A DNA stretch of 64,000 nt from a virus, in the IMG/VR virus record IMGVR_UViG_3300003937_000144, positions 1-64,000 of that record, one strand, 5' to 3'. Below are positions 6,736 through 60,982 of the stretch, piece by piece; position 1 is the stretch's first letter; each line of letters opens with the position of its first letter. A program made the position numbers and the translations under genes. The notes beneath the pieces were generated by a model that was not told the DNA's origin, searched no databases, and saw only the letters and a list, made by a program, of their open reading frames with translations.

Positions 6736-7455
6736 ATGCAGTCTTTACAAACATTTCTCGAGGGTCGAAATGACCCTTCAATATTCAAAGCAGTTTTTAT
6801 GGCAGGCGCTCCAGGCGCAGGCAAGTCTTTTGTCTCTGATTGGATGGCATTAGGACCGCAACTTGGCTTTAAAGTAATTAATTCTGATAAAGAATTCAGT
6901 CGTTATATGAGAGAAGCAGGCCTTACCGATGATAAAGGCGCAGTCATTATTGACCCTAAAAGATCTTTCGAACGTGATGTTGTACGCACGGTAGCAAAAC
7001 GACATACTGCAGCTATCCAGAGACATGCTTTAATTGGTAGATTAGGTCTTGTTATTGATGGTACAGCTGCAAATGCTACTAAAATAATAGCGCAAAAGAA
7101 AAAGTTAGAGTTACTTGGTTATGAATGTGCTATGGTTTATGTTAATGTTCCTTTGAAAATGTCAATAGCAGCAGACAAACAGCGTGGTGAAGAGGGTGAA
7201 AGAACTATTGGAGCAGAACTTGTTACGGCTAAATACAATGAATTAGATACAGGTATACCTAAATTAATAAAAGCATTTGGTTCAGCAACTACTGGGTTCG
7301 GGCCTAGGCCTAGTAAATCAATGTTTTTTATAGTAGATAATACAGTAAGAGAAAAAACACCAAGTCTAATTAGAAAGGTGTTAGGTGAGATTACTAAATG
7401 GGCTAAAAAATTGCCAAAGAATAGGGCAGCAAAACTATGGATGAAGAATAACTAA
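6736..7455 (+). CDS. P-loop kinase (AAA_33/zeta-toxin/PNK-like)
   Basis: MAGAPGAGKS Walker A, VINSD, LVIDGT; leader MQSLQTFLE. Confidence 0.85.
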   Translation: MQSLQTFLEGRNDPSIFKAVFMAGAPGAGKSFVSDWMALGPQLGFKVINSDKEFSRYMREAGLTDDKGAVIIDPKRSFERDVVRTVAKRHTAAIQRHALIGRLGLVIDGTAANATKIIAQKKKLELLGYECAMVYVNVPLKMSIAADKQRGEEGERTIGAELVTAKYNELDTGIPKLIKAFGSATTGFGPRPSKSMFFIVDNTVREKTPSLIRKVLGEITKWAKKLPKNRAAKLWMKNN

Positions 7456-9026
7456 TGTTAAATTTTAAAGAACAAGTAAATGAAACAACTGGCATGCGCT
7501 TAGTCGATCTTCTTCCGAAGAAGGTTAAGCGTCTGATATACAGAGTTGCACATCAAGACAAATATAAAGGTGCTTTGCTTATGATAAAGCATTTAAGACA
7601 AGATCCTGATGTAATCTCAAGAGGCTTAACTAAACACCAGATTCAAAATATTGCTGCTGACCATTTTAAATTAGATCATAGAGAGTTTGCAAAGATACTC
7701 AATCGTCAAACAAGATACGAAGAAGCTCCTCCAGGAATGGCAGACACCGTCAAGAAATTTAAAGCTGATGGTATGGATGACGAGACGGCATTCGCACTTG
7801 CTTGGTCTATATATAATAAGAAAGAGGATGAGGTAGTACAATTATCAGAGGCAACAACTAAAGCCTCTACGTATTTTGAGTGGGCTCTTATTGCTATGAT
7901 TAATGATAAGTCAAAAGACGAAGGCGACTTTATTCGTAATATGAAAAGAGATAAAGGTTATACCGCTTGGTTTAAAGCTACAGATAAAAAATGGAATCAA
8001 AATCAATCAGATCATTATGAATTCTCTAAAAAATTAAAGAGTATTACAAGATCAAAGACCGCCGAATCAGCTGGTCAATCTTCTCCATCGACTTCAGCTA
8101 TGTGGAAAGACGTTACTGGTAAAAGCAAAGATACTTCTAAAGCTGATATTAATATAGGTTCACACAAAGTAAGTGTTAAAGGTACACAAGCCCGGTTAAT
8201 GTCTGGTGTTAAAGAGGAAAGTCTTGCTACACTATATGCAGCATTTGATACTATAGGCGTGGATAATCTCGGCCAAAACTTAGAAAAAATAGTAAATGAA
8301 TTTGTGTCAAAGGTTAGAACGGTTGGTGATGAAATGACTTCGACAGCTATCAAAGAAAAAGATCCTAAAACATTATCTGCAGAAAATAAAGCAGCATTTA
8401 AACAATTAGAAACACAAGTTCAAGTTAAAGCTAAAGCTGAAACTGCATTTAAAAAAGCATTTGCTAATAGGGAATTCGCTGATGCATTTGCTTGGGAAGC
8501 TATGAGTGGTGAAAAGAAATTTGGTAATGGTGAAGGTACAGCTGATGCAATGCTGGTCTGGCCATATGATCTAAGAAATATTGCATGGTATCCTGCCTTA
8601 AGTCTTAATCATAAGTATGTTAAAAAGGTTTCAGGTCAAATGAAGTTCTCAGCTAATGTTAAATCAGCAAGCTATAAAAAGAAAAATAAGAAATATGGTT
8701 ATGCTATATCACAAGTTGTTGACTTAGCTTTTAAAACTGCTGATTCTGAATTTGATATTGCTAAGAATGAGAGTATAGAACAAAGATTAGATCTAGAGAC
8801 TATGTTACAAGAAGGTAAAATTGATGAAGCAAAGTTATTAGATAAGCTTAAAGGTATTTGGGAAAGATTAAGGAATGCAATAGCAACAGCATGGGCTAAG
8901 TTAATGAATGCAATCACTAATCTTGCCCAACAAATAAGAGATGCAATTGATGGTGGTTTAGATACTTTACTAGATGCATTTGAATTAGAACCAGTTATCA
9001 AATTTAATAACAATATAAAACTATGA
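7455..9026 (+). CDS. Multi-domain probable internal head protein with PD-(D/E)xK-like nuclease domain
   Basis: Leader MLNFKEQVNE; TSKADINIG...VSVK resembles a PD-(D/E)xK/SxK core; internal LSE/A and IDE/A sites. Confidence 0.5.
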   Translation: MLNFKEQVNETTGMRLVDLLPKKVKRLIYRVAHQDKYKGALLMIKHLRQDPDVISRGLTKHQIQNIAADHFKLDHREFAKILNRQTRYEEAPPGMADTVKKFKADGMDDETAFALAWSIYNKKEDEVVQLSEATTKASTYFEWALIAMINDKSKDEGDFIRNMKRDKGYTAWFKATDKKWNQNQSDHYEFSKKLKSITRSKTAESAGQSSPSTSAMWKDVTGKSKDTSKADINIGSHKVSVKGTQARLMSGVKEESLATLYAAFDTIGVDNLGQNLEKIVNEFVSKVRTVGDEMTSTAIKEKDPKTLSAENKAAFKQLETQVQVKAKAETAFKKAFANREFADAFAWEAMSGEKKFGNGEGTADAMLVWPYDLRNIAWYPALSLNHKYVKKVSGQMKFSANVKSASYKKKNKKYGYAISQVVDLAFKTADSEFDIAKNESIEQRLDLETMLQEGKIDEAKLLDKLKGIWERLRNAIATAWAKLMNAITNLAQQIRDAIDGGLDTLLDAFELEPVIKFNNNIKL

Positions 9027-10246
9027 ATCTAAAGAAACACATAGCAGAAGCTAAGAATACTCACATGACTCACATTGAGGACATGGTGATTGACGGTGGT
9101 GTACAAGGAGCACGGTCAGCTATCTTCGCATTACGTGATTTAAGAGACATGTTAGCTGGTCATTCGAATGACACTAAGCAAGTCACGGTCAAATGGGATG
9201 GTGCACCAGCTGTATTTGCTGGTATCGACCCGAGTGATGGTAAGTTCTTTGTTGCAAAGAAAGGAATATTCAATAAGAATCCTATGGTATATAAGAGCGT
9301 TAAAGAAGTTAAAGCCGATACCTCTGGAGATTTAGCAGCAAAACTCACAATAGCATTTCAAGAATTAAGTAAACTTGGTATTAAACAAGGAGTCTACCAA
9401 GGTGATATTATGTTCACTAAAAAAGACTTAAAGAAACAAACAATTGACGGGAGGAAGTATGTAACCTTTCACCCGAACACTATAGTATATGCAGTACCCG
9501 TTGAAGCAGCAAAAGATATTATGAGAGCAAAGATTGGCGTAGTGTGGCATACTTATTACTCAGGCGCAACCTTTGAAAAAATGAATGCATCCTTTGGTGT
9601 AACCATTGGATCATTTAAAACAGTCCGAACGGTATGGCAAAAATCAGCCAACCTACCAGACATATCTGGTTTAGCCACACTAACTAAAAGGGACACAGAT
9701 GAAATTACGAAACATATATCAAACGCAGGAAAGCTCTTTCAAAAGATCTCTGCCAATACGCTTACTGACGTATCTACAAATACGGATATTAATTTACTTA
9801 TTAATACCTTTAGAAACACGAAAGTTAGATCGCAAGATGAAGTTACTAACTCAGCAAGATACGTACAAGAGCTCATTAGCTGGATCGAAGATCGATATAA
9901 CACAGAAAAAGAGAGACTTAAAAGCGATGCTGGCAAGGATAGGAAGGAAGAAGCGAAGCTTGCAGCACTAGAATTCTTCTCAGATGAGAACAAAGATGGG
10001 CTTATAAGTATGCTTGATATGCAAAACGAGCTAGTAATGGCTAAGAAAATGCTATTAAAGCATCTTGACAGCATGGATAGTATAAATACTTTTATAAAGA
10101 CTAAAGACGGTTTTAAAGTAACAGGTGCTGAAGGATATGTTGCTATAGATCATTTAACTAATGGCGCTGTTAAAATTGTAGATAGGATGGAATTTTCTTA
10201 TAATAACTTTAGCAAAGACATTATAAAAGGATGGGAGTCCGATTAA
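9023..10246 (+). CDS. DUF6267-like protein with ATP-dependent ligase/nucleotidyltransferase motifs
   Basis: TVKWDGAP (KxDG), YQGDIMF, AEGYVA, AVKIVDR; leader MNLKKHIAEA. Confidence 0.7.
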   Translation: MNLKKHIAEAKNTHMTHIEDMVIDGGVQGARSAIFALRDLRDMLAGHSNDTKQVTVKWDGAPAVFAGIDPSDGKFFVAKKGIFNKNPMVYKSVKEVKADTSGDLAAKLTIAFQELSKLGIKQGVYQGDIMFTKKDLKKQTIDGRKYVTFHPNTIVYAVPVEAAKDIMRAKIGVVWHTYYSGATFEKMNASFGVTIGSFKTVRTVWQKSANLPDISGLATLTKRDTDEITKHISNAGKLFQKISANTLTDVSTNTDINLLINTFRNTKVRSQDEVTNSARYVQELISWIEDRYNTEKERLKSDAGKDRKEEAKLAALEFFSDENKDGLISMLDMQNELVMAKKMLLKHLDSMDSINTFIKTKDGFKVTGAEGYVAIDHLTNGAVKIVDRMEFSYNNFSKDIIKGWESD

Positions 10247-11104: not shown

Positions 11105-11380
11105 ATGTCAGTAACTGTAACAGCAGCATTGAGAGATATGCAAGAAGCACAAGAACTAAAAGAAAAATGGAATGAAAAGGTTTCCCTTAAAGGCTTAGAC
11201 CAATTCCGCGCGATGTATAAAACATGGTTAAAATCTGGAGTTGATCCAAGATTTATTAAAGCAATGGAAAAATTATATGACGATATGGTAATTGGCGGCA
11301 TGTATTCTTCTCGTAGTGCTGAAGATGCTGGCATTCTAAAAATCGACGGCAAAACCAAATATAAGAACGCGAACTGGTAA
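11105..11380 (+). CDS. Hypothetical protein
   Basis: AGGA RBS, tight packing. Confidence 0.6.
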   Translation: MSVTVTAALRDMQEAQELKEKWNEKVSLKGLDQFRAMYKTWLKSGVDPRFIKAMEKLYDDMVIGGMYSSRSAEDAGILKIDGKTKYKNANW

Positions 11381-12198
11381 TGTCACTGCATAGCTTTAAA
11401 GAACACCTTCTCAAAGAGGCCGCAGCAAAAACGGTCACAGTAAACTTTGGTCGTTTCAATCCTCCCACTATCGGTCATGAAAAACTACTAGATATTAGTA
11501 TGTCCAAAGGTACCGGTGACCATAGAGTATATGCATCCCAAACCGCAGGCAATAAAAAGAATCCATTAGATTGGAAGACTAAAATTAAATTTATGCGTAA
11601 GATGTTTCCTAAGCATGCAAGACATATCCTTATGGATAAGAAAATTAAAACAATTTGGGATGTAGCAGTTACTTGTTATAAAGATGGATATACAGAATTC
11701 GAATTAGTTGTTGGTGATGACAGACACCAAGAATTTGTTAAACTTTTAGATGATTTTAATGGTAAAAAAGCTAGACATGGATTTTATGAATTTGATGTAA
11801 TAGATGTTATAAGCGCTGGTGTAAGAGACCCAGATGCTGAAGGTGCTGAAGGTATGTCAGCTTCCAAGATGAGAGCCGCTGCTGAAGACAATGACCTAAT
11901 TGCATTTACTAAGGGTGTACCAAAGAAATTTAAAGATGCCGAGGGACTAATGAAAGCAGTTCAAGCCGGCATGGGTATAAAGGAATCAAAACCTTATAGA
12001 CATATCAAATTAAAGAAAACTTCAAATCTAAGAGAAAAGTTTGTGGCTGGTAAACTGTTTAAAGTGAATGATCCGGTTGTAACTAAAGGTGGCAGAGAGG
12101 GTGTTATAGATACATTAGGAGCTAATCACGTTAAGGTGAAATTGAAAGAATCAGAAACATTTAAAACATTCTGGTTACAAGATATAATTACTACATAA
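11380..12198 (+). CDS. HIGH-superfamily nucleotidyltransferase (phage cytidylyltransferase-like)
   Basis: FGRFNPPTIGHEKL, VVGDDR, MSASKMR; leader MSLHSFKEHLLKE/A. Confidence 0.88.
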   Translation: MSLHSFKEHLLKEAAAKTVTVNFGRFNPPTIGHEKLLDISMSKGTGDHRVYASQTAGNKKNPLDWKTKIKFMRKMFPKHARHILMDKKIKTIWDVAVTCYKDGYTEFELVVGDDRHQEFVKLLDDFNGKKARHGFYEFDVIDVISAGVRDPDAEGAEGMSASKMRAAAEDNDLIAFTKGVPKKFKDAEGLMKAVQAGMGIKESKPYRHIKLKKTSNLREKFVAGKLFKVNDPVVTKGGREGVIDTLGANHVKVKLKESETFKTFWLQDIITT

Positions 12199-18859: not shown

Positions 18860-19120
18860 TATAAAACGACGTAAAGGTGAAGGTAGGAGCACTTAACACG
18901 TGGGTTCAATTCCCACCTCCTCCACCAAATATATTTTAAACGAGATGTATTTGATGGGGGAGACACGGCTTCGATTAGGTAGCAGATCCGCTTGAGACTC
19001 GTCAGCCAACAAAGGCTATAAAATGAAAAATTAATCGGCAATCAGTCAGATTATTTACTAGCGGCGTAGAGTCAGCTAGTTGAGGTTTTCTCCGGAGTTC
19101 CTTATCACCCAATACTCCGG
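18860..19120 (+). ncRNA. ssrA: Circularly permuted (two-piece) tmRNA; tag (A)GNQSDYLLAA
   Basis: T-arm GTGGG-TTCAATT-CCCAC then CTCCTCC-A-CCA (to 18927) precedes the 5' strand GGGGGAG (18956-18962), giving a 7-bp acceptor stem with G3:U wobble; tag ORF 19037-19069 ends LAA-stop; outer ends approximate. Confidence 0.93.
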
Positions 19121-22644: not shown

Positions 22645-23309
22645 TGTTTAAACATGAACCCGTTGACTTAGGTTATGAAGACTTAGCTACTATCAGTAAA
22701 GGTGGTAGACAATATGTTATAGAGAAAACCGATGTCAAGACTGTATACTATCCGTCAATCACAAATCTCCTTGGCAATCTAAGTAAAGAAGCTATTAAAG
22801 CATGGAGAGATCGTATAGGTCACGAAGAAGCAAATAAGATATCTAGACAAGCAGCAGGAAGAGGCACAGCAGTTCACCAAGTCTGTGAAGATTATGTGAA
22901 CAATAATCCTGATTATGACAAAGATTTAATGCCTAATATCTTATATGACTTCAATAGAATTAAAGATATACTTGATACCAGGATAGGTACAGTATATGGA
23001 CAAGAATTACCGTTGTATTCTGACCATTTAAAAGTCGCTGGAAGAGTTGACTGTGTGGCAGAGTTTGATGGTAAAGTAAGTATAATAGATTATAAGACCA
23101 GTCGAAAGACTAAAAAAAAGGAATGGATCCATTCTTATTTCATGCAAGAATGCTTTTATGCTATTGCATGGGAAGAGAGAACTGGTATTCCTATCACACA
23201 ATTAGTAACAATCATATCTGTTGACAACGCAGAACCACAGGTGTTTATTGAACATCGTGACAATTGGGATAAAGAACTTGTACAAGTTATAGAAAAATAT
23301 TCTACATAA
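22644..23309 (+). CDS. Cas4-like PD-(D/E)xK exonuclease
   Basis: YPSIT, RGTAVH, AGRVDC, IIDYKTS, Q...YA. Confidence 0.88.
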   Translation: MFKHEPVDLGYEDLATISKGGRQYVIEKTDVKTVYYPSITNLLGNLSKEAIKAWRDRIGHEEANKISRQAAGRGTAVHQVCEDYVNNNPDYDKDLMPNILYDFNRIKDILDTRIGTVYGQELPLYSDHLKVAGRVDCVAEFDGKVSIIDYKTSRKTKKKEWIHSYFMQECFYAIAWEERTGIPITQLVTIISVDNAEPQVFIEHRDNWDKELVQVIEKYST

Positions 23310-23332
23310 GCCGCATTTCATAGAAAAATCTT

Positions 23333-23379
23333 ACTATTTTCGAAAATAGTTACACAAGCGCCGCAAACTATGATATAAT
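23333..23379 (+). promoter_or_regulatory. Early-type promoter with perfect 18-bp palindrome ACTATTTTCGAAAATAGT and TGATATAAT -10
   Basis: Intergenic position, palindrome 23333-23350, extended -10 ending 23379. Confidence 0.65.
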
Positions 23380-23411
23380 GGTACCATATTTAATAAAAAA
23401 GGAAGATAAAA

Positions 23412-23486
23412 GTGGAAAGTGAAATTGTGTTTTTTCTAGTTATGTTAGGAAATTTAGGTTTACATGTTCTTTTAGGGAGATACTAA
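23412..23486 (+). CDS. 24-aa hydrophobic peptide (GTG start)
   Basis: AGGA RBS; MESEIVFFLVMLGNLGLHVLLGRY. Confidence 0.45.
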   Translation: MESEIVFFLVMLGNLGLHVLLGRY

Positions 23487-23487
23487 A

Positions 23488-23793
23488 ATGGTTGTTACAG
23501 ATTTAATATATAGGTTGGTTGGACGTTCAGATACAACATGGACTGAAACAGTTGAAGGCCATCCGGAACGAGATACCTTACATATAGGATTCTCGGGTGA
23601 TGAAGACAGGCGAGAAACTGTCCGCTCAATACTGCAGCAAAGCGGTGTTCTATTGAGTGAAGTTGAACGCTTAAGGGAAGAAGGTGTTGTCTTAGATGTT
23701 GTCTTAGACGATTACTTTGTTGGACTTAGGCTGAGTTTAGAGCGTGTCTGGTTATTTACATCTTGGTCACGTGAAACAATATTGAGATTTTAA
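23488..23793 (+). CDS. Hypothetical protein devoid of Lys, Asn, Ala and Cys
   Basis: GGGAG RBS, fills the space between neighbours, 101 codons. Confidence 0.65.
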   Translation: MVVTDLIYRLVGRSDTTWTETVEGHPERDTLHIGFSGDEDRRETVRSILQQSGVLLSEVERLREEGVVLDVVLDDYFVGLRLSLERVWLFTSWSRETILRF

Positions 23794-23803
23794 GGAGAAA
23801 ATT

Positions 23804-24091
23804 ATGAATACATTAGAACTATTAGAAAAATATGCAAGTCCAAAAGGAGAAGCTTCTTTTGCAAAAGGTATACCTATAAAATATCTTAAAGAAGTTCGAG
23901 AAGCTTTAAAGCTTGGCGATACTGTTGAAGCTGTCGAGAAAAAATGGACAGAAGCTGGATGGACTTATAACAGCTTTAGATACGTATTTCGCGGGAAGTC
24001 TAAACCTGGGTTTGTACGTCCACGAGCGTGGTGTCCTAAACCACATGCAGAAACATTTGCAATTTATGAGCGAGGTAATTATGCCTACTAG
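23804..24091 (+). CDS. Hypothetical protein
   Basis: AGGAG RBS; KGIP...RYVFRG...AETFAIY. Confidence 0.7.
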   Translation: MNTLELLEKYASPKGEASFAKGIPIKYLKEVREALKLGDTVEAVEKKWTEAGWTYNSFRYVFRGKSKPGFVRPRAWCPKPHAETFAIYERGNYAY

Positions 24092-49076: not shown

Positions 49077-50282
49077 ATGGCAACAGTAAACGTAACAACA
49101 GCAAATACATTTGAAGAATGGAGAGTCAAGACCAATGAGTTGGGAACAGCTGTTGGTAACTTAACTAATCTGACTGAGCCATTAGCAGGTGCAACAGATA
49201 TAGTTTCTGCATTAGCAGACCATGAGACACGAACAGAAGCGCTTGATCTTATTGTTGGTACTGCTGCATTATGGGACACAACTAATTATGGTACTTTGCG
49301 TAAAGCTGCAAATAAGAACCATGCAGATATTACGACACTAGCTGCAACAGCCGGTATTGATTTAGCTAACAATAGTTTATCTGGATATAATGGTTCAGAG
49401 ACAACTCTAGTAGCTATTCTTAATGCTCAATATGCAGTTGACAATACTCAAACAACTAATATAACATCTAACGATACTGATATTGCTGCTATAAATACGA
49501 AGCTAGGTACAATCTCGGCAGCTGCGATGGGAACAACTGCGGCAACGGTTGGTCCTGCTATTTTAGAATTACACGGTGAATTAACCACCGCTACTTCAAA
49601 TATTGCTGCCGTCGGTGCTGCTTATGTAGCTGTTGCTGGTGATACAATGACTGGCACACTTGTTACTGCAAGCTCTGGATTAAGTGGTTCAACAGCGGGT
49701 GTAAGTGCTGCAACGCTATTAACATTTGGTACTGGTTCTAGTACAGCAATGCAAATTAACTCAAGCCAACGTATTGGTATTGGTACAAGTGCTCACGCAT
49801 CGCATAAGGTAGATGTATCTGGTAGCTTGAATGCTACAACATTATCATATGGCGGAACAGATTTAAAATCAGTATTCCATGAACAAGGTGAGTCATTCCA
49901 AGATGCGGTAGGTGCAATGCTTGGTGGTACAGAAACTGGTGGAATATCAGTAACATATGATGATGCTAATAACCATATAGACTTCGCAATTGCAGATGAT
50001 GGACATAATCACGTAGTTGGTAACATTGATAACTTCGCTGAAGAAGTTCAAGATGTTGTTGGCGCTATGGTTGGCTCTAATACTGAGTCAGGCATATCGG
50101 TTGTGTATCAAGATGGTGATGGAACTATTGACTTTGATGTTAACGATCCAACCATTACTTTGACAGGTGCGGTTACAGGTTCTGGTACAATAACAAACTT
50201 AGGTTCAGTGAGCATAACAACAACAGGTGCGCCATCGCTTAAACTAGATATTTATGATGTTGCTGGCAACCAGTTGTTCTAA
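49077..50282 (+). CDS. Fibre/whisker-like structural protein
   Basis: TFEEWRVKTN N-terminus, coiled-coil, QDxVGAM repeats, C-terminal DIYDVAG. Confidence 0.7.
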   Translation: MATVNVTTANTFEEWRVKTNELGTAVGNLTNLTEPLAGATDIVSALADHETRTEALDLIVGTAALWDTTNYGTLRKAANKNHADITTLAATAGIDLANNSLSGYNGSETTLVAILNAQYAVDNTQTTNITSNDTDIAAINTKLGTISAAAMGTTAATVGPAILELHGELTTATSNIAAVGAAYVAVAGDTMTGTLVTASSGLSGSTAGVSAATLLTFGTGSSTAMQINSSQRIGIGTSAHASHKVDVSGSLNATTLSYGGTDLKSVFHEQGESFQDAVGAMLGGTETGGISVTYDDANNHIDFAIADDGHNHVVGNIDNFAEEVQDVVGAMVGSNTESGISVVYQDGDGTIDFDVNDPTITLTGAVTGSGTITNLGSVSITTTGAPSLKLDIYDVAGNQLF

Positions 50283-50314
50283 ATTGACAATAATATAAAT
50301 AAAGGTATAGGGAA

Positions 50315-50653
50315 ATGGCAGTATTAAGCAATTTAAGTATAGACCAAGGTGCAGACTATAGTGCTGACATCGTGGTAGAAGATGGTAATGGTAACGTTGC
50401 AGATTTAACTGGATATACTGTAGCGGGTCAAATGCGAAAAAGCTATGCCTCAAGTACCGCAACAAATTTTGGAGCTACTATAGCTAATGCCGGACAGGGA
50501 TTAATTACAATAACTCTATCGAATTCGGTTACAAATGGATTGAAGGCCGGAAGATACTTATATGATGTGGAGATAACCAAGACTTCTACAAGTGAGAAGA
50601 CTAGGGTTGTCGAAGGACAAGTTACGATTAACCCAGGAGTTACACAAACATAA
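50315..50653 (+). CDS. Virion adaptor (BppU-N-like Ig domain)
   Basis: IDQGAD, DLTGY...QMRKSY, GRYLYDVE, RVVEG..T..PGVT; late promoter 50294-50301. Confidence 0.75.
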   Translation: MAVLSNLSIDQGADYSADIVVEDGNGNVADLTGYTVAGQMRKSYASSTATNFGATIANAGQGLITITLSNSVTNGLKAGRYLYDVEITKTSTSEKTRVVEGQVTINPGVTQT

Positions 50654-50904
50654 TGGCATTACAAGGAAAGATTACAGCAAATAGGGGATACCAATCCGCT
50701 GGAATCACAAAGAAAGTTATAATGGCAAGAAATGTAAGTGTCTCGGGGGTAACGTCGCAGCTCGCAGCGTTAACTGATGTTGATGTTTCTGCTAGAGCTG
50801 ATGGTTCAATTATACAATGGGATGGTTCTGCCGGAACATTTAAAGTTAAGCCGACTATGGAAGATACGAATAGTAATACAAAAATTAATGGAGGGTCATT
50901 TTAG
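50653..50904 (+). CDS. Small fibre connector protein
   Basis: L..LTDVD....DGS..QWD motif; C-terminal INGGSF. Confidence 0.65.
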   Translation: MALQGKITANRGYQSAGITKKVIMARNVSVSGVTSQLAALTDVDVSARADGSIIQWDGSAGTFKVKPTMEDTNSNTKINGGSF

Positions 50905-50940
50905 TGGCGCTACAACTTAACAAATTAGAGGAGAAATAGG

Positions 50941-52812
50941 ATGGCAGGAACAGTCATTGTAACTAAATATAGTTTAGCCACAGGCTCGCCGGCAACAGAT
51001 GCATTAGCGGTTGGTGAACAGGCTTACTCATTTAGTTCAGATAAATTATTCATTGGCGAAACATCGGGTTCGGATGTAGTAGCACGAGTAATTGGTGGTC
51101 AAGTCTACACAGACATGTTGGACCACACTGCGGGTACGCTAACAGCGTCATCAGCAATTATAACAGACGCATCGAGTAAAATTAGTGCATTAAATGTTGA
51201 CAACTTAACATTAGATGGTAATGCAATCACATCAACAAATACAAATGGTGATATTACAATCACACCACATGGATCTGGTAAGGTTATCCTTGATGGTTTA
51301 TCTCATCCAACGGCTGACGGTTCGAATGGTCATGTCTTAACAACTGACGGTTCGGGTAACTTAAGCTTTACTGCACCAGCTTCATCAAGCTTATCGCTTG
51401 CTGCTGATTCAGGTTCAAATGATACCTTTAATACTGGTGAGACATTAACCTTTACAGGTGGTGATGGTATTGATACAACAGTATCAGATAATACAATAAC
51501 AATTGCCGCAGAAGTTGCAACCTCAGCTAATAAGGGTGTTGTAACATTAAACACTGCTGACTTTGATGTAACATCAGGTGATGTAACGGTTAAAGCTTTA
51601 GGTATATCGAATGCACAACTTGCTGGTTCAATTGCTAATGGTAAATTAGCAAACTCAACTGTTGCATACGGTGGTGTTACATTATCATTAGGTACTGCAG
51701 ATACAACTCCTGCATTTGACCTAACTGATGCAACTAACTATCCAACATCTTCATTAACTGGCAGCATTACTAATGCTCAGTTAGCAGGTTCAATTGCTAA
51801 CGGTAAACTAGCAAATGATGGTATAACAATTGGTTCTACTGACACATCTCTTGGTGATACAATTACAGCATTAGCTGGAATGACAGCAATCGCTGTTGAC
51901 AATGTATCAATAGATGGTAATGCAATTTCAACAACTGATTCAAACGGTAACCTATCACTTGCACCACATGGTACAGGAACAGTTACGGTTCCTTCAAGTT
52001 ATGAAGGTCGTGCTGGATTTGGTTCTGATTCACTTACAAATAAAGCATATGTTGACTCTGTTGCAAACGGTTTAGATGTTAAAAAATCTTGTCGTGTTGC
52101 TACAACAGCCAACCTTGCTGCAACATATAACAATGGTGCAGGTACACTAACTGCAACTTCAAACGCTGCAATTTCTATCGATGGTGTAACTCTTGTTGCA
52201 GATGATAGAATTCTTGTTAAAGACCAAACAGCTGGTTTACAAAATGGTTTCTATAAAGTAACAACTGTTGGTGATGGTTCTACTGCATTTGTTATAACAA
52301 GAACACCAGACGCTGATGCAGCCTCTGAATTAACCGCAGGTGCATTTACATTTGCTGAAGAAGGTACTGATAACGGAGACAATGGTTATGTAATGAGCAC
52401 AAACGGTGCCATCACACTTGGTACAACTGCAATTACATTTGACCAATTCTCAGGTGCTGGTCAAATTAGTGCTGGAAATGGTTTAACTAAGTCTGGTAAT
52501 ACAATCAATGTTGTTGGTACAGCAAACAGATTAAGTGTTGCTGCTGATGCAATTGATATTGATTCAAACTATGTTGGTCAAGCTACAATAACAACATTAG
52601 GTAGTATTGCTACAGGTACTTGGGCAGCAACAGATGTTGCAATAGCTCATGGTGGTACAGGTGTAAGTTCACATACTGGTGACGGATATTGGGTATCAAA
52701 CGCTGGCGGTACAGCATTAAGCTACATAACTGGTACACAATACCAGCATTTAGGATTTAGTTCAACTGGAGTTCCACAAGCAAGTGGAACAATTGATGGT
52801 GGAACATTTTAA
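50941..52812 (+). CDS. Tail fibre protein
   Basis: LAVGEQA N-terminal domain, ITNAQLAGSIANGKL repeats, DRILVKDQ...NG.Y domain, C-terminal IDGGTF. Confidence 0.8.
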   Translation: MAGTVIVTKYSLATGSPATDALAVGEQAYSFSSDKLFIGETSGSDVVARVIGGQVYTDMLDHTAGTLTASSAIITDASSKISALNVDNLTLDGNAITSTNTNGDITITPHGSGKVILDGLSHPTADGSNGHVLTTDGSGNLSFTAPASSSLSLAADSGSNDTFNTGETLTFTGGDGIDTTVSDNTITIAAEVATSANKGVVTLNTADFDVTSGDVTVKALGISNAQLAGSIANGKLANSTVAYGGVTLSLGTADTTPAFDLTDATNYPTSSLTGSITNAQLAGSIANGKLANDGITIGSTDTSLGDTITALAGMTAIAVDNVSIDGNAISTTDSNGNLSLAPHGTGTVTVPSSYEGRAGFGSDSLTNKAYVDSVANGLDVKKSCRVATTANLAATYNNGAGTLTATSNAAISIDGVTLVADDRILVKDQTAGLQNGFYKVTTVGDGSTAFVITRTPDADAASELTAGAFTFAEEGTDNGDNGYVMSTNGAITLGTTAITFDQFSGAGQISAGNGLTKSGNTINVVGTANRLSVAADAIDIDSNYVGQATITTLGSIATGTWAATDVAIAHGGTGVSSHTGDGYWVSNAGGTALSYITGTQYQHLGFSSTGVPQASGTIDGGTF

Positions 52813-52847
52813 TTAACGTATATATATAAGAAAGAGAGGAAAATAAT

Positions 52848-53825
52848 ATGCCAAAACCTTTAAAGTGGAATGGAAGTGCAGGACTTAAGGAAATGTCCGC
52901 AGCTGAAATTGATGACAACGTCGATCTAATATTAGACCATTTTTCTGGAATGACATCTAATAATACTGGCCACCTTGCAATGAATGCAGAGTCGGGCTGG
53001 ACAGACATTGGTACATTCGCAGATACTAGACGTGACCAAGCACAGGGAACTCACCCGGCTAATACAACCATTCATACAGACAACTATGTCTTTAGACAAA
53101 ACTTAACTGACGTTACTCCTAGCCCAACAGCTAGGCCGTTCGCAGTTAAATATGATGGTGGTTCTTTTGATGGTATGATTGAAATGACAGATGCTGAATG
53201 CAGAGCTGACATTGTTGATAGAATCAATATTAAAATTGCTGCAGGTGGTGTAGGTTCATATGTATTACAACCAGCAGCTCCTGGTACAGGAACATGGACT
53301 AACGTTGGTACAGTTAATAACAAATTAGCTGTGGATTCAGTTGCTAATAGCACAATACTTTGGAAGAGAACAACTGGTTCGAATACAACTGCAACAAGAC
53401 CTCTAAAATGGAATTCAAATCAAGTGAAAGAGATGTCTGATGCTGAGATTAATGACTTAGTAGAAATGTATCAAGAATCTATTGTTGATACAGGTATTGG
53501 TAAGTACACATTAGCTGCAGCCGCTCCTGGTACAGGAACATGGCAAACAGTAGGTTCGGCCTTTGTTGATACAAGAAAACAAAGAACAGACCAAAACTAT
53601 TCAGGTGATTATACTGGTGCTTATACCGGTAACTATACTGGAGCTTATACAGGTTATTACTCAACATACTACTCAGGACGTCAAGTAGGTCCATATACTG
53701 GATATTACTCAGGCACATATACTGGATATTATTCAGGAACTTATACTGGTTCATATACTGGTGCAACAATTATGGCCGCAACAGACTCAGTAACTACAAT
53801 GAAACTTTGGTTAAGGACAGCATAA
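52848..53825 (+). CDS. Structural protein with Y-[TS]-G-x tetrapeptide repeat
   Basis: Internal repeats PLKW..KEMS.AEI and AAPGTGTW; YTGx array near C-terminus. Confidence 0.75.
   Translation: MPKPLKWNGSAGLKEMSAAEIDDNVDLILDHFSGMTSNNTGHLAMNAESGWTDIGTFADTRRDQAQGTHPANTTIHTDNYVFRQNLTDVTPSPTARPFAVKYDGGSFDGMIEMTDAECRADIVDRINIKIAAGGVGSYVLQPAAPGTGTWTNVGTVNNKLAVDSVANSTILWKRTTGSNTTATRPLKWNSNQVKEMSDAEINDLVEMYQESIVDTGIGKYTLAAAAPGTGTWQTVGSAFVDTRKQRTDQNYSGDYTGAYTGNYTGAYTGYYSTYYSGRQVGPYTGYYSGTYTGYYSGTYTGSYTGATIMAATDSVTTMKLWLRTA
53598..53765 (+). repeat. 12-bp-period coding repeat (YTGx/YSGx x14)
   Basis: YSGD YTGA YTGN YTGA YTGY YSTY YSGR QVGP YTGY YSGT YTGY YSGT YTGS YTGA. Confidence 0.85.
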
Positions 53826-53826
53826 T

Positions 53827-54261
53827 ATGGCAAAGCATAAAATAGTTTCATGTTATACCAAATCAGGTGCAGCATTTAATACAATAACAGAAGCAATAGA
53901 AACACATATGGCGGCTTCATCTGCTACTGAAACAACAATTGCTGAGTATGAATCATGGGTTGATGGACAAACTAACTTTACTGAAACAAAATCATTAACA
54001 TCTAATGGTTCAGCTGTTGCCTCTGGTACTGCAGGTAATGGTTATGCATTAACTAGAACTTGGACACAAGCTAAGTTAGCAGCATTGGCAGCAACATGGA
54101 CTTCTCTTGCTGAAGCTAAAGGTGAACCAACAACTATTGGTACTGGATGGACAGTAACCCATACTGATACTGATCCTGCTAGTGGTAATCCATCACCTGT
54201 ATGGGGTGGAGATGGAACAGGTGGTCCAGAAGGTTCAACATTTGGAGTAGAAGGCATTTAA
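53827..54261 (+). CDS. Hypothetical protein (likely virion)
   Basis: Thr/Gly/Ala-rich, codon style like neighbouring structural genes. Confidence 0.6.
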   Translation: MAKHKIVSCYTKSGAAFNTITEAIETHMAASSATETTIAEYESWVDGQTNFTETKSLTSNGSAVASGTAGNGYALTRTWTQAKLAALAATWTSLAEAKGEPTTIGTGWTVTHTDTDPASGNPSPVWGGDGTGGPEGSTFGVEGI

Positions 54262-54305
54262 TAAGCGAGTATAAATAATTATATTATAACTGAAAGGAAT
54301 ATATC

Positions 54306-54755
54306 ATGGCAACTGAGAATAAAAAAATCAATGATCCGTACTACGCGGATGCATCTTCCAATCTAATCGTATGCGACTTCTTATATGAAGATGGCACATC
54401 TACAACTGTGTCAATTGGAAATACTCCTAAGGGAGAAAAAGATAATCCGGATTGGAAACAAGTATTTAAAGAGTTTACTCACGAAGAAATTAAAGCAAAT
54501 ACTAAATTAAAAGAAGATTCATATCATGCTAACCAAGCTGGAAGACTGGCCAAAGAAAAAGCTGATCAAGATAAAGCAAAGAATGAAGCATTATTTGCAG
54601 CAAAGGTTGATGCCTTTGAAATCGCAGAGGTTAAAGCTTCTAAGAATAGAGTGGCAAAATCTAAAATTCGTAAAGCAAGTAATCTAGTAGAGATCTTTGC
54701 TTATAGTGCATCTATTATCTTAGAAGAAAATGCCAAACCAAAAGAAGAAGCTTAA
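54306..54755 (+). CDS. Hypothetical protein
   Basis: LFAAKVDAFEI.EVK.SKNR..K..IRKA motif; late promoter 54270-54277. Confidence 0.65.
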   Translation: MATENKKINDPYYADASSNLIVCDFLYEDGTSTTVSIGNTPKGEKDNPDWKQVFKEFTHEEIKANTKLKEDSYHANQAGRLAKEKADQDKAKNEALFAAKVDAFEIAEVKASKNRVAKSKIRKASNLVEIFAYSASIILEENAKPKEEA

Positions 54756-55443
54756 TGGGTTCATAATTGTAGCAAGTCAGTTTTACGAGTATTATGAGGC
54801 GGCTCATATGCTTATAGATTCACTGCTAGATTATATGCCAGAGGCAAACATTGCCCTATTCGCTCATGACCAATGGACCAAGAATGATTCACGCTGTGAC
54901 GATCTTTATATGGTTGATGATTGTCCTAATCATGTTCGAGCCAAACTCTATTGCCTATCTAAAACCCCATTTGATAAAACTGTATACTTAGATGCTGATA
55001 CTTATGTGCAGCATGAAGATGTATCTAAGATGTTTGACTTCGATTCCGATTTAGTATTCACTAATATAAGACCATACGCAGGTAAGATAGCTAAGTTTGT
55101 TGGAGGTGAAATGGTATTACATGGTGGCGTATTCGGTTATAAGTCAACGCCTAGAGTATTTCAATTCATGGATGATTGGTGGAATTATTATAATAAGCAA
55201 AGAACTAATGAATGGTGGCCAGAAGGGGTTCAACCAAAATCACAATTAATTAGTTGGGATCAGCTAACTTTATGGTGGTTAACTGAAAATACGTATTCTG
55301 ATTTAGATATAAGTATATACGAAGATGATGCAAGATGGAATTTTGTTTATGTATATAAAGAAGATGAATGCAAAGGACCAATAGTAATATGGCATTATAC
55401 ATTACCATTAAAAAAACCGGCAGATGCGCGAAGTCTTAATTAA
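54730..55443 (+). CDS. GT-A fold glycosyltransferase-like protein
   Basis: RAKL, TPFDKTVYLDAD (DxD), HGGVF, WDQ, RWN, IWHY. Confidence 0.78.
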   Translation: MPNQKKKLNGFIIVASQFYEYYEAAHMLIDSLLDYMPEANIALFAHDQWTKNDSRCDDLYMVDDCPNHVRAKLYCLSKTPFDKTVYLDADTYVQHEDVSKMFDFDSDLVFTNIRPYAGKIAKFVGGEMVLHGGVFGYKSTPRVFQFMDDWWNYYNKQRTNEWWPEGVQPKSQLISWDQLTLWWLTENTYSDLDISIYEDDARWNFVYVYKEDECKGPIVIWHYTLPLKKPADARSLN

Positions 55444-56044
55444 AAATAAAGAGATATTAAAAAGACTTGATGGCTTTATTGAAAGTATCAAGGGCCTTGA
55501 CATGTCTATTTTAGATATTAAAGAGCAAGGAGACAAGGGTAAAATATATGCCACCTCCAAAGAATATCTACAACTCGTATTAAATAAAGCTGAGAATAAA
55601 CAATTTAGAGGGCCACCTGAAATGATGTGGGGTGTAGACTTATGTAACAATCATAAGTACGGTGGCGAATGGTTAATACTTGCAGAGGATGTAGGATTTA
55701 ATTTTGCAAGAGAATTAGGTGCACAACAGAATGCATTGTTCATGTATTATCCTAAGGATGGTTATATAGGTTGGCATGATAATAGAGATGCTCCAGGATA
55801 TACTATATTATTTAATTGGAGTGAGGGTGGAGATGCATTCTATAGATATCGTGATTGGAAAACTGGTAAGGTGCATACTATACATGACAGACCTGGTTGG
55901 ACCTGTAAGACTGGTTGGTATGGACCAGGTAAAGAGTCAACATTCCATTGCGCTATGACTAATGAACCAAGATGGAGTATAGCATTCTATGCACGTAATG
56001 AGACGATGAGAGATCTAATCATTGATGAAATAGAAAATGACTAA
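55424..56044 (+). CDS. 2OG-Fe(II) oxygenase-like (DSBH) protein
   Basis: YYPKDGYIGWHDN ... FHCA ... RWSIAF. Confidence 0.65.
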   Translation: MREVLIKNKEILKRLDGFIESIKGLDMSILDIKEQGDKGKIYATSKEYLQLVLNKAENKQFRGPPEMMWGVDLCNNHKYGGEWLILAEDVGFNFARELGAQQNALFMYYPKDGYIGWHDNRDAPGYTILFNWSEGGDAFYRYRDWKTGKVHTIHDRPGWTCKTGWYGPGKESTFHCAMTNEPRWSIAFYARNETMRDLIIDEIEND

Positions 56045-57407
56045 AACAAAACTCATAAAATTTATAAAAGACAACAAACATAAATTTGTATTCTTTAATT
56101 ATAGAGGTGGAATGGGTGGTGAAACCATTTGTAATCATCTAACACTAACAAATGATTACTTCTATAATGAAACTTTTAAGCAAGATATCATAGATAATAA
56201 GTCACACATATTCAGTGCCGAGCTAGATGATGGAGGTTCTAAGCCTGTAACAGATGCTTATGATACCGCAAATAGATCTAGGTTTAGAGATTGGATGTTC
56301 GGAGATTGGTTTATGCTACATTCATTATACGATAATTATAATTCTAATAATAATAACCTATGGGATGGTGAAAATATATTTCCACAGTATGATGATGTAC
56401 ATGGTGATAATGAATTTTATGATAAACTATATGAGATATCAGATTCAATAGAACATAGAAATTCAAATCTAGGTGATATCAATTGTATTTTTGGTTGGGA
56501 CAATAGAATTAATGATGGTAAATGGGACCATGAATGGAAAGATGTAGATCATGAATGCGATGAGGTATTAGAAAGATTTGCTGCACAAGATAAACCTTAC
56601 TTGATTCGAACACATGGTATAACCCCTTTTATGAAATTTTTAGGTGGTGCAAAGTTTATTGATATTGTTTGTAATGAATGGGAAAGGTATTGTACAAGTT
56701 TATCCGAAGCAAAAGTATTTGTTAATCCTATTAAAGGCAAAGAAGAAATAGCCGCTATGGTTAAACAGGTAATACATTGTTGGTCAATTGGACTCGAAGC
56801 AATTGGTGTAGATAATAAGAATCAACCAGTGGGTGGAGTGTCACCTATTATAACACATAGCGAGATGGAAGCAGAACTTAAAGAAAAATTTGTTTTAGAT
56901 TATATAGGTGATGCGGAAGAGATATGTCTTAAGACAATAGGTGTTATAATAGATCCTGAAAAATATGAATTAAATTTAAATACTTTTAAAGATGCAACTG
57001 AATTAAATAAATTTGTTCATGCGTTACAAATGTTTAGATCATATCCAAAGATGCTACCTTTTTTTATGAGAGATGAACTTACAAAATGGGATATGGGTGG
57101 ACCATGGGGAACAAAGATTGAAGAGCCAAATCATAAAGGTGCATGGTGGCAAACAATATATAAGCATGAGCGATGGTGGTATGACATAATTAACCCACAA
57201 TTATATAATATGCAAGATATGTTTGATGGTGATTGGGTAGAAGAACAATTCGGAATGGATCCAAAACCTATAAGAGAAATGATGGCTAAATGGCATGAAG
57301 GCAATTGTAAGTTCTTAGACGATATGCATATTACTAATTATCTTCCTAAGGCACCTTCAAAAGAAGCACAAGATATATACCATACACATCGAATAACGCC
57401 GTCATGA
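56037..57407 (+). CDS. Hypothetical protein, degenerate P-loop sulfotransferase-like N-terminus
   Basis: FFNYRGGMGGETI and LIRTH motifs. Confidence 0.4.
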   Translation: MTKTKLIKFIKDNKHKFVFFNYRGGMGGETICNHLTLTNDYFYNETFKQDIIDNKSHIFSAELDDGGSKPVTDAYDTANRSRFRDWMFGDWFMLHSLYDNYNSNNNNLWDGENIFPQYDDVHGDNEFYDKLYEISDSIEHRNSNLGDINCIFGWDNRINDGKWDHEWKDVDHECDEVLERFAAQDKPYLIRTHGITPFMKFLGGAKFIDIVCNEWERYCTSLSEAKVFVNPIKGKEEIAAMVKQVIHCWSIGLEAIGVDNKNQPVGGVSPIITHSEMEAELKEKFVLDYIGDAEEICLKTIGVIIDPEKYELNLNTFKDATELNKFVHALQMFRSYPKMLPFFMRDELTKWDMGGPWGTKIEEPNHKGAWWQTIYKHERWWYDIINPQLYNMQDMFDGDWVEEQFGMDPKPIREMMAKWHEGNCKFLDDMHITNYLPKAPSKEAQDIYHTHRITPS

Positions 57408-58063
57408 ATATAGTAACAGTTAAATGGGGTGACAAATATTCTGTTGATGATGTCAATAAATTGTATTATAGTTGCGTAGCTACTACTCATGAGAATGATA
57501 TTCATTTTTATTGTTATACAGATGATTCTATTGGGTTAAATCCTCATATAAATTGGTTACCTCTTATTGATATGGATCTAGATGGGGTATGGAATAAGTT
57601 ATCATTGTTTAAGCCGGGTATGTTACCAGAAGGTAAGTGGTTATATTTAGACTTAGATGTAATTATACAAGGTAGATTAGATGAGATCTATATGCAAAAT
57701 CAGTTTACAATGGTTAAATGCTATTGGAAACCTATAGAAGTTCTTCGCCCTGATTGGGTATTTGAAGGCAGAACTATAAGAGATCATGATATAAACTCTT
57801 CTGTTATGTTGTTTCATAATGATGAGAACCATCATATATGGGAACACTTTTGGGAATCACCTGATGATTATATGATGGCTTATCCAGGAATAGATGGGTT
57901 TATATATTGTGAAGGCTTTGCCCCTAACAATTATTGGAAACAAGGTAGGATATATTCAAAGTACTATGGAATTAAAGAAGAGTCATGGTATAATCCACCT
58001 GATGAGCCTTATTATTTAGAAACAGCTGCAATCTGTTTACTTAACGGACCCCTTAAGATATAA
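57404..58063 (+). CDS. GT-A fold glycosyltransferase-like protein
   Basis: VKWGDKYS...VNKL, FYCYTDD, WNKLSLF, LYLDLDV, NSSVM. Confidence 0.8.
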   Translation: MNIVTVKWGDKYSVDDVNKLYYSCVATTHENDIHFYCYTDDSIGLNPHINWLPLIDMDLDGVWNKLSLFKPGMLPEGKWLYLDLDVIIQGRLDEIYMQNQFTMVKCYWKPIEVLRPDWVFEGRTIRDHDINSSVMLFHNDENHHIWEHFWESPDDYMMAYPGIDGFIYCEGFAPNNYWKQGRIYSKYYGIKEESWYNPPDEPYYLETAAICLLNGPLKI

Positions 58064-58102
58064 ATAAAGCTATAAGGATTGAATATTCAATTATTATAAA
58101 TA
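58059..58102 (+). promoter_or_regulatory. Two tandem late promoters TATAAATA
   Basis: 58059-58066 and 58095-58102. Confidence 0.7.
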
Positions 58103-58150
58103 AAGACAACGGTGGTTATATAATCATCACAATAAAATTAGAGCATAGAT

Positions 58151-58429
58151 ATGGCTGGTACTGTAGTAAAAATCAAGCAGTCCTCTGTTGCAGGTAAAGT
58201 ACCTTCAGCGAGTGACTTACAACAAGGCGAATTAGCACTTAACACGGCTGATGTCAAGCTATACTCAAAGAACGGATCAGGAGAAGTCATTACGTTAGCG
58301 GCGGGGGCTAGTACGTTTACTCAAACATTTGATATGGGTAACCATGCTGGAGATGTAATATTAGACGGCGGTGATTATAATGATTCAATTTATGTAACAC
58401 AGGGTTCATATGACGGCGGGGGAGCATAA
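58151..58429 (+). CDS. Small fibre connector protein
   Basis: KIKQS...P...LQQGELALN N-terminal domain; two C-terminal DGG motifs. Confidence 0.7.
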   Translation: MAGTVVKIKQSSVAGKVPSASDLQQGELALNTADVKLYSKNGSGEVITLAAGASTFTQTFDMGNHAGDVILDGGDYNDSIYVTQGSYDGGGA

Positions 58430-58432
58430 GAT

Positions 58433-60964: not shown

Positions 60965-60982
60965 TTTTTTAGGAGACGATAA

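Follow-up and report, generated by a model that had tools for sequence, protein, structure and literature searches.

Results

The 101-codon gene and its locus

Within a 64,000-nucleotide stretch of viral DNA (positions 1 to 64,000 of IMG/VR record IMGVR_UViG_3300003937_000144, on a 94-kb contig; hereafter the window) we analyzed a 101-codon gene at 23488-23793 that has no codon for lysine, asparagine, alanine or cysteine and keeps to a reduced set of the remaining codons. The gene lies in a T4-like replication/early region, following genes for RNase H, a gp33-like protein and a PD-(D/E)XK exonuclease. By its sequence, the source appears to be an uncultured marine T4-like myovirus. The nearest isolates by RNase H are the OM43 phage Melnitz, the pelagiphage HTVC008M and cyanomyophages; because the identity to them is only ∼40%, the phage counts as uncultured.

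The product is an acidic protein of 101 amino acids (11.8 kDa, isoelectric point 4.7) with 14 Leu, 13 Val, 12 Arg, 11 Glu, 9 Thr, 8 Asp, 8 Ser, 7 Gly and a single Pro. Arginine makes up 12% of its residues, compared with 3.5% in the other open reading frames (ORFs) of the window. The G+C content of the ORF is about 41-43%, that of the window 36.5%.

A preliminary description of this DNA, made from its letters alone, had credited the gene with a strong promoter and a good ribosome-binding site. Both the promoter-like site and the GGGAG motif (Table 1) recur in homologous loci. In every locus inspected, even where the surrounding genes differ, the homologue is preceded at 40-110 nt by an equal or better promoter-like site (TTGACT-17-TATAAT). 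The gene seems to behave as a promoter-plus-gene cassette with early timing. In three studies, RNA libraries yielded contigs that overlap the ORF, which is weak evidence of transcription, such contigs being no proof. Inside the gene, the tandem copies of the 12-mer GTTGTCTTAGAT are nearly invariant in nucleotides among 10 aligned homologues, synonymous sites included.

Table 1. Features of the window and the alleles compared
Feature	Position	Strand	Basis
101-codon protein gene, restricted codon set	23488..23793	+	composition, codons, dN/dS, homologues, AlphaFold2 model, simulation
Sigma-70-type promoter-like site: TACACA, 17-nt spacer, TATAAT with TG extension	23351..23379	+	consensus scan, 10/12 matches
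Shine-Dalgarno-like GGGAG, 8 nt 5' of the main ATG, inside the end of the mini-ORF	23475..23479	+	sequence read; conserved where the mini-ORF is present
Tandem 12-mer GTTGTCTTAGAT, two copies inside the gene, encoding VVLD-VVLD, predicted beta-hairpin	23686..23709	+	alignment
24-aa hydrophobic mini-ORF (MESEI...LGNL...LGR[YF]), stop 1 nt before the main ATG	23412..23486	+	conserved peptide
Circularly permuted (two-piece) transfer-messenger RNA (tmRNA)	18867-19069	+	Rfam 65.6 bits, full model length; missed by ARAGORN
Zeta-toxin/AAA_33-like P-loop kinase	6736-7455	+	Pfam/PHROGs
DUF6267 protein	9023-10246	+	Pfam/PHROGs
'Cytidyltransferase'-like protein (nucleotidyltransferase)	11380-12198	+	Pfam/PHROGs; placed by PHROGs in one family with the DUF6267 protein
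Allele group with 6-7 Lys versus Lys-free L068	L067, L074, L076-L086 versus L068		alignment

Omission of codons and residues

Read codon by codon, the gene contains no AAR, AAY, GCN or TGY codon (R, purine; Y, pyrimidine; N, any base) and no internal ATG; isoleucine is encoded only by ATA, and valine only by GTT and GTC. Composition thus bears out the preliminary description, which had reported the lack of Lys, Asn, Ala and Cys codons and the use of Arg as the basic residue. The other ORFs on the + strand of the window are, as it had also stated for the neighbouring proteins, richer in lysine and asparagine (K 6.4%, N 5.8%, A 8.4% and C 0.7%, or 21% together). An independent-residue model gives ∼4e-11 for the joint absence of K, N, A and C, near the earlier estimate of about 1e-10, but the residue set was chosen post hoc and the figure overstates the case. 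The gene is the only ORF of at least 60 amino acids with this profile in the whole 94-kb contig. Elsewhere in the window, several large ORFs on the + strand at 49077-63262 are also low in lysine (1.5-2.3%) and have high alanine (13-14%), an Ala trend opposite to that of the 101-codon gene.

The omissions are shared by the family to which the gene belongs. In 120 representatives of its protein clusters, K, N and A together occupy 28 of ∼12,000 aligned positions and account for 12 of 165 minor residue states, all of them rare. We counted codons in 59 distinct homologous DNAs (∼5,800 codons), which are related sequences, some of them mosaic. GCN is absent from all 59, AAA/AAG from the 50 members that are free of lysine, and internal ATG from all but one sequence, where it stands at the variable codon 2; AAT/AAC occurs eight times. 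Isoleucine is written ATA 273 times, ATT three times and ATC six times, and the valine codons are GTT (494), GTC (147), GTA (32) and GTG (0). Isoleucine appears at ∼20 alignment columns, almost always as ATA, also where the alternative is valine as GTT or GTC, so that two changes are needed. The absence of cysteine is not conserved, as homologues carry one to three Cys.

The commonest codons of the gene are GAA, ACA, ATA and TTA, with CAA also among them, and ACA is the main threonine codon of the family (244 of ∼450). Arginine usage has moved away from AGA, the habitual codon of the genome, to AGG, CGA and CGC. These rare codons are kept at fixed positions throughout the family, AGG at codons 41, 63 and 81 and CGA at codons 28, 42 and 55. 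The AGG codons persist, we observe, even though one AT-favoured transition would turn AGG into AGA.

The avoidance is strictly in frame. The other frames of the ORF hold AAA four times and GCN nine times, which rules out avoidance of nucleotide motifs. A strict frame is what would be expected if the gene escaped ribosome-dependent mRNA endonucleases (RelE/HigB/YafQ-type) that cut specific in-frame codons, and toxins of the YafQ and HigB types prefer in-frame AAA, which is absent here. However, A-rich or A-ending codons (GAA, ACA, ATA, TTA, CAA) dominate the gene, and the opposite third-base rules of the Ile and Val boxes fit the identity of tRNAs rather than a single nuclease pocket. We consider such an escape very improbable. 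The earlier suggestion that HigB-type cutting of A-rich codons lies behind the omissions is not supported: no codons are commoner than GAA, ACA, ATA and TTA, and out of frame AAA is tolerated four times. Nor does the codon usage look like evasion of HigB/YafQ-type toxins, for in-frame AAA is missing but GAA, ACA, ATA, TTA and CAA are among the codons used most.

A genuine gene of a narrow phage family

A word-indexed protein search recovered homologues in 222 protein clusters at 71-100% identity, nearly all of them 101 amino acids long, and 84 loci were retrieved (18 viral and 66 metagenomic). The 101-codon frame is open in all loci, and substitutions are concentrated at third positions. Pairwise ratios of nonsynonymous to synonymous divergence (dN/dS) are 0.17-0.35, with a synonymous divergence (dS) of 0.5-1.0 reached within the family. 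The gene at 23488-23793 is thus a genuine protein gene under purifying selection. Conservation of the K/N/A avoidance among homologues with dN/dS below 1 had been set beforehand as a check of the preliminary description, and it is what we find. One homologue, 94% identical, lies on a 151-kb contig. An exhaustive HMMER search indicated a narrow family; tblastn against 50,697 isolated-phage records found no homologue, nor did a search of 185,579 species genomes. By these searches the family appears to be an orphan confined to phages.

Some database homologues carry an N-terminal MKKGEKM extension, which would add lysine. The part in question falls after the -10 element and ahead of a purine-rich Shine-Dalgarno-like stretch, and in locus L011 it is out of frame; the extensions are probably miscalled starts.

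A non-coding RNA as the reason for the odd composition, a possibility raised with the first description, is contradicted by the dN/dS values and by the absence of any stable or covarying structure. Rfam gave no match on 23300-23900 at E-values up to 10, the folding z-score is -0.27 and the alifold covariation term is -0.93, and we rejected an RNA gene or structured RNA. An overlapping or antisense ORF was likewise rejected as a source of constraint: the other ORFs reach at most 44 amino acids, and TTA, CTA and TCA are stops in the aligned antisense frame.

The omission is maintained by selection

Gene families from the same loci served as controls. In ten neighbouring families, K, N and A make up 18-28% of the minor residue states (254 of 1170), and none of the 78 in the 101-codon family of these loci (p about 5e-9 against the neighbours). 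Codon usage of the neighbouring families is ordinary: ATT/ATC equals or exceeds ATA in most, GTA/GTG is about as frequent as GTT/GTC, internal ATG amounts to 2-5% and AAR to 5-14%. Since nine neighbouring families of the same phages, and a mini-ORF of the same transcript described below, use the avoided codons normally or even by preference, a local mutation bias is excluded.

We further simulated codon evolution on the family tree from an ancestor free of K, N and A (200 runs on a tree of 49 K-free tips with a total length of 3.5 nucleotide substitutions per site, kappa being set to 3, omega to 0.25 and the base frequencies to those of the genome). The simulated means were 112 for AAR, 94 for AAY, 89 for GCN, 117 for ATT/ATC and 133 for GTA/GTG. 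The same 49 tips hold 0, 7, 0, 9 and 29, respectively, each value below all 200 simulations. A more conservative count, of derived codon states reached in a single step, gives four in the avoided classes against 18.6 expected (p about 5e-5), with ATA in excess. The omission is actively maintained by selection.

The opposite proposal, that no specific selection is involved and that the pattern comes from chance, from the composition of a donor genome or from an open non-coding element, would draw on the somewhat higher G+C content of the ORF, as descent from a GC-rich source would leave fewer K and N and more R. Such an origin would also raise alanine, yet alanine is absent. The omissions persist at dS 0.5-1.0, coding constraint is clear, neither an RNA family nor an RNA structure is found, and the controls from the same genomes differ sharply. 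We regard this proposal as hardly credible.

Distant homologues and lysine-bearing alleles

A distant branch of the family occurs in other marine phages, beginning with P0125 (31% identity) and continuing with P0128-P0133 and L020-L022. Per domain of ∼97 amino acids, these proteins contain 7-10 K, 6-9 N, 2-3 A and 2-5 internal Met; their isoleucine is encoded by ATT and ATC, and all four valine codons are used. Their lysine positions are arginine in the clade of the T4-like phages. The model of a distant homologue (predicted local distance difference test, pLDDT, 94.8) has the same order of secondary-structure elements as that of the 101-residue protein. As the distant homologues are ordinary in composition and alike in predicted fold, fold and ancestry do not demand the odd composition. 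The codon restriction is thus derived in the present lineage. In some distant homologues (L020:3590-4279, L022:3758-4273 and P0128-P0130) the homologous part forms the C-terminal domain of proteins of 165-229 amino acids; some of the long ones show N-terminal CxxC...CxxC motifs resembling a zinc ribbon, for which the Pfam hints are weak.

A well-supported subclade of nine members (∼50-58% identity to the window protein) carries six to seven lysines where the others have arginine. Its members have no alanine, no internal methionine and at most one asparagine, and encode isoleucine only by ATA. On this comparison, the omission of lysine is separable from the other omissions. The family tree has a basal polytomy and does not set the order of the Lys-bearing and Lys-free states. 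One Lys-free member, L068, lies inside the Lys-bearing subclade, and where its codons are replaced they agree with the K-free alleles. In an RNA-library contig (run X16, record 8), an N-terminal part of the K-bearing type is joined to a C-terminal part of the window type.

The alleles bear directly on a selection at the level of the protein, by which lysine (and perhaps Asn, Ala and Met) would be absent to escape a protease or a Lys-directed modification or conjugation such as ubiquitin-like tagging or acylation, the codon preferences being incidental. Arginine does replace lysine position by position in comparison with K-bearing and distant homologues, the lysine status switches as a block between alleles, and regions free of lysine are an acknowledged adaptation of toxins and of certain phage proteins (PMC13696103). 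But no chemistry joins Ala, Asn and Met, the K-bearing subclade keeps the remaining omissions, and ATA-only isoleucine, the absence of GTG and the opposite codon use of the mini-ORF are left unexplained. We hold this to be improbable. Lys-directed conjugation, also proposed in the preliminary description, could at most cover the lysine part of the pattern and not the other omissions.

The mini-ORF, tRNA genes and other neighbours

The main gene is preceded by a 24-residue mini-ORF, whose peptide is kept in 20 distinct DNAs that vary at synonymous sites. In most loci the mini-ORF is found upstream of the main gene, in L007, L008 and L073 downstream of it (for example at L007:4725 and L073:2162), and in others it is absent. 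Its codon choice is the opposite of the main gene's: ATT/ATC 42 against ATA 8, GTA/GTG 29 against GTT/GTC 13, ATG 10, and an invariant AAT. The first description had noted that this peptide, too, lacks lysine and alanine. In the window it does lack both, but it carries asparagine, and in L007 and L008 also alanine and lysine, so the bias is not shared.

In one lineage, the homologue has a phage gene for tRNA-Asp(GTC) ∼2 kb upstream (L009:1661-1736 and L010:1759-1834). This tRNA gene, 2 kb upstream in a relative, would suit an account in which a partly rare codon set controls expression, tying translation to host-minor or phage tRNAs or slowing it as a rare-codon timing switch. The conservation of AGG, CGA and CGC at fixed positions points the same way, and among the codons that the tRNAs of T4-type phages serve are ATA, TTA, ACA, GGA and CAA. 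What such control predicts, however, is enrichment of codons and not the total loss of four amino acids. There are no tRNA genes on the 94-kb contig, and since the gene comes first behind an early promoter, phage tRNAs would not yet be present. We find control of this kind quite improbable.

The tmRNA (Table 1) had also been mentioned as a possible partner of the gene. Two-piece tmRNAs have already been described in related marine myophages (PMC9004378). Here the two are 4.4 kb apart, and the RNA genes of 16 homologous loci are limited to tRNA-Asp, most of these loci reaching only 4 kb upstream, so that the link is not established. The genes for the P-loop kinase, the DUF6267 protein and the cytidyltransferase-like protein have no sequence relatives in the PDB, which leaves an RNA-repair kit with no support either way.

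Predicted structure of the product

An AlphaFold2 model of the product, an alpha/beta protein, is of high confidence (pLDDT 96.5) and consists of a helix, two strands, two helices, two strands and two helices. Pfam searches at E-values up to 1, PADLOC and a sequence profile search of the PDB returned no match, and the ESM Atlas gave no usable one. The best PHROGs match (E 0.023) is to a family of unknown function. Foldseek against the PDB and BFVD, and VIA-align, yielded background-level matches only, with Z at most 5.4.

Two types of fold recur among these matches. The order of elements in the model is LAGLIDADG-like, and I-DmoI (Z 5.1; 3.5 Å over 83 residues) and WhiA (Z 4.3; 3.2 Å over 70 residues) align within the background range; Foldseek matches toward LAGLIDADG-type structures are likewise at background level (E 0.03-0.1, template modelling score about 0.4). 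The LAGLIDADG motif itself is missing, as there is no Pfam or PDB-profile match and the N-terminal helix ends in R-S-D rather than a motif of the G-D-G type. Winged-helix structures of the CRP/FNR type (7ets_B, Z 5.4; 2hkx_A, Z 5.2; over 72-73 residues) also match at background level. The most conserved segment, RET-x-RSILQQSG-x-x-LSEV, along with LDD, resembles a helix-turn-helix; of its two helices, the second is basic in distant homologues but acidic in this clade (SEVERLREEG). As a hypothesis only, the product might be an inhibitor or a sensor in a tRNA-directed conflict.

Discussion

Selection on decoding

Missing residues could be put down to protein chemistry, but the restriction to ATA for isoleucine and the absence of GTG could not, and this argues that selection acts on decoding, a conclusion that we draw from the codon counts with fair confidence. 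The third-base rule is opposite in the two boxes, with only A admitted for isoleucine and A or G avoided for valine, which argues against a single codon-reading nuclease as well as against general effects of composition. Under standard bacterial decoding, which is assumed for the host, the message would dispense with tRNA-Lys(UUU), tRNA-Asn(GUU), all tRNA-Ala, elongator tRNA-Met(CAU), tRNA-Ile(GAU) and largely tRNA-Val(UAC). It would use tRNA-Ile2 (lysidine-CAU), tRNA-Val(GAC), the initiator tRNA and the remaining tRNAs.

The best overall explanation, tentative and somewhat short of probable, is that this is a restricted-codon immediate-early gene expressed at a time when those tRNAs are unavailable. 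The coding sequence has been rewritten in the lineage of these phages, with lysine replaced by arginine and isoleucine encoded by ATA alone, and is held by selection in the reduced codon set; on this explanation, the infected cell would lack some or all tRNAs of the omitted classes at the moment when the product has to be synthesised. The most plausible cause would be host abortive-infection systems that cut or block those tRNAs; a loss of tRNA induced by the phage, or starvation, could have the same effect. In that case the protein might act as a first responder, such as an inhibitor of one of these host systems. Loss of tRNA as the cause, and a counter-defence role of the product, are suggested by the pattern rather than observed, and the anti-defence or host-shutoff function put forward in the preliminary description is likewise conjecture.

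What is known of tRNA-directed immunity makes such a cause plausible. Multi-target tRNA-cleaving immunity that includes tRNA-Lys and tRNA-Asn exists (10.1101/2025.02.04.636281; PMC11464382), and phage tRNAs are thought to substitute for cleaved host tRNAs (PMC10264068). Transcripts that contain little of the affected codon are spared when a toxin cleaves tRNA-Lys (PMC6620280), and whether a marine T4-like cyanophage can infect is decided by the supply of tRNA (PMC11726456).

The reading by tRNA loss, already put forward in the preliminary description, gains from the synonymous restriction (ATA 273 against ATT/ATC 9, no GTG, no internal ATG), and loses in that the target set of PARIS fits only partly, ACA being the main threonine codon. 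Evasion of a PrrC-type nuclease would agree with the lack of AAA/AAG in the 50 K-free members and with the conserved, putatively early promoter, and would cover one of the six omitted decoding classes. The main targets of AriB, the PARIS nuclease, are the tRNAs for Lys(UUU), Thr(UGU) and Asn(GUU) (10.1101/2025.02.04.636281). Evasion of a PARIS-type system is therefore not what the family displays: AAR occurs 0 and AAY eight times, but ACA is used for 244 of ∼450 threonines.

A narrower version, which we regard as doubtful, is that the protein is a tRNA-independent first responder that neutralises or exploits a state in which the tRNAs of the omitted classes have been removed, by tRNA-directed immunity of the host or by a tRNA-directed host shut-off of the phage itself, with the mini-ORF as a possible stalling sensor. 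The mini-ORF is rich in the omitted codons and overlaps the ribosome-binding site of the main gene, and stalling on it could tune translation of the main gene.

Amino-acid scarcity offers an alternative cause at the level of tRNA. In a slow-growing oligotrophic host, the gene might be robust to starvation or tRNA competition by avoiding the tRNAs that become uncharged first, with no nuclease involved; minor isoacceptors would be used where present (Ile2 for ATA, Val GAC for GTC), and the amino acid dropped where there is one acceptor. Genes needed under amino-acid or tRNA scarcity reportedly avoid the scarce species or use isoacceptors that stay charged, as proposed by Elf et al. in 2003 and Alves and Savageau in 2005. 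That some amino acids are dropped fully and others kept with minor-isoacceptor codons only is what selective charging predicts. The nearest isolated phages infect streamlined marine bacteria, and the rare Arg and Leu codons AGG, CGA, CGC and TTG are enriched. Against this, Asp and Glu are enriched despite a single acceptor each, and enrichment of up to two-fold is seen for Val, Leu and Thr, whose precursors are also those of avoided residues. TTA and GAA are the commonest codons here though heavily used genome-wide, and the pattern is found in no other early gene of the phage. We consider starvation as such unlikely.

The explanation by unavailable tRNAs has several points against it. We know of no nuclease with this target set, and ACA, the codon of the prime PARIS target tRNA-Thr(UGU), is used here as the main threonine codon. 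The avoided codons are in heavy use in all other genes of the phage; since those genes need the codons, a lone tRNA-independent protein helps only if it restores tRNAs or stops their loss, and that the 101-residue protein restores or protects tRNAs is a supposition only. For the product, neither a family nor a defence-library match nor a convincing fold match was obtained. The 94-kb contig is free of tRNA genes, and the lone phage tRNA near a homologue is a tRNA-Asp, which the gene uses. The Lys-free L068 is probably a recombinant, with a K-bearing backbone and a K-free central segment, and not an independent loss of lysine. As to the statistics, the simulation has one omega for all sites and residue changes, so that site-specific constraint lies outside its model, and GTA arises as a rare variant at about the neutral rate, which makes avoidance of Val(UAC) the weakest class.

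Significance

Among the strategies against phages, immunity directed at tRNAs (PrrC, RloC, PARIS, retron and Schlafen-type nucleases) is coming to be seen as a major one. If the explanation by unavailable tRNAs is right, leaving out vulnerable codons would be a third answer of phages besides replacement tRNAs and tRNA repair, and one recognisable from sequence alone. If the first-responder version holds, conserved codon omission in early genes would read out the target spectrum of tRNases in uncultured bacteria. Even if starvation and not immunity is the cause, this would be an unusually absolute adaptation at the level of tRNA. The family is a clean natural example of selection on tRNA needs, with four amino acids lost and one Ile codon nearly exclusive, and it is well controlled by the same transcript, the same genomes and a sister allele with lysine. 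It opens questions about the target range of tRNases in marine hosts, the binding partner of the orphan protein and the use of recoded genes as markers of counter-defence.

Comparison with known systems

The closest parallels to the proposed pressure are the host nucleases that remove tRNA-Lys, tRNA-Asn and others on infection. Phages counter these anticodon nucleases with tRNAs, as T5 does against PARIS (PMC11464382; 10.1101/2025.02.04.636281), with anticodon-loop variants (PMC10264068), or with repair, as T4 does against PrrC (PMC2610378). Whereas these counters consist of replacement tRNAs or repair enzymes, the present case is one of codon avoidance in an early gene, and the omitted set differs from the PARIS targets, ACA being used freely. 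We know of no prior description of codon avoidance in an early gene as an answer to anticodon nucleases.

In mycobacteria, cleavage of tRNA-Lys by MazF-mt9 stalls translation at the codons of this tRNA, and messages free of these codons are still translated (PMC6620280, PMC7033543), much as we propose here. There, the escape involves just one codon and shows up statistically across host transcripts; here, it is a conserved and complete omission of ∼15 codons read by six tRNA species, in one phage family. In Synechococcus infected by Syn9, also a marine T4-like phage, translation of key phage genes is limited by one host tRNA (PMC11726456). That host lost expression of a rarely needed tRNA, Leu-TAA, whereas TTA is the commonest codon in the present gene. 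A host cannot forgo all its Lys, Asn, Ala or Met tRNAs, so only an induced loss could explain the present gene.

Lysine deserts share with this protein the complete absence of lysine and the supply of basic residues by arginine (PMC13696103). They are defined as continuous Lys-free stretches of at least 50% of a protein of at least 150 amino acids (PMC13696103); the present protein is 100% Lys-free but has 101 residues, and so shares the trait while falling outside the definition. The known lysine-less proteins are connected with tagging by ubiquitin or Pup and often belong to GC-rich genomes, whose composition plays a part, whereas here the genome is that of a phage with 36% G+C, and synonymous restriction and the loss of Asn, Ala and Met are added. 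Cognate bias and selective charging, for their part, appear as a mild bias in biosynthetic enzymes, in contrast to the absolute omission in this phage early gene. From its sequence, then, the family appears to present known ideas, those of lysine-less proteins and of codon-dependent escape from tRNA loss, in an unusually absolute and well-controlled form.

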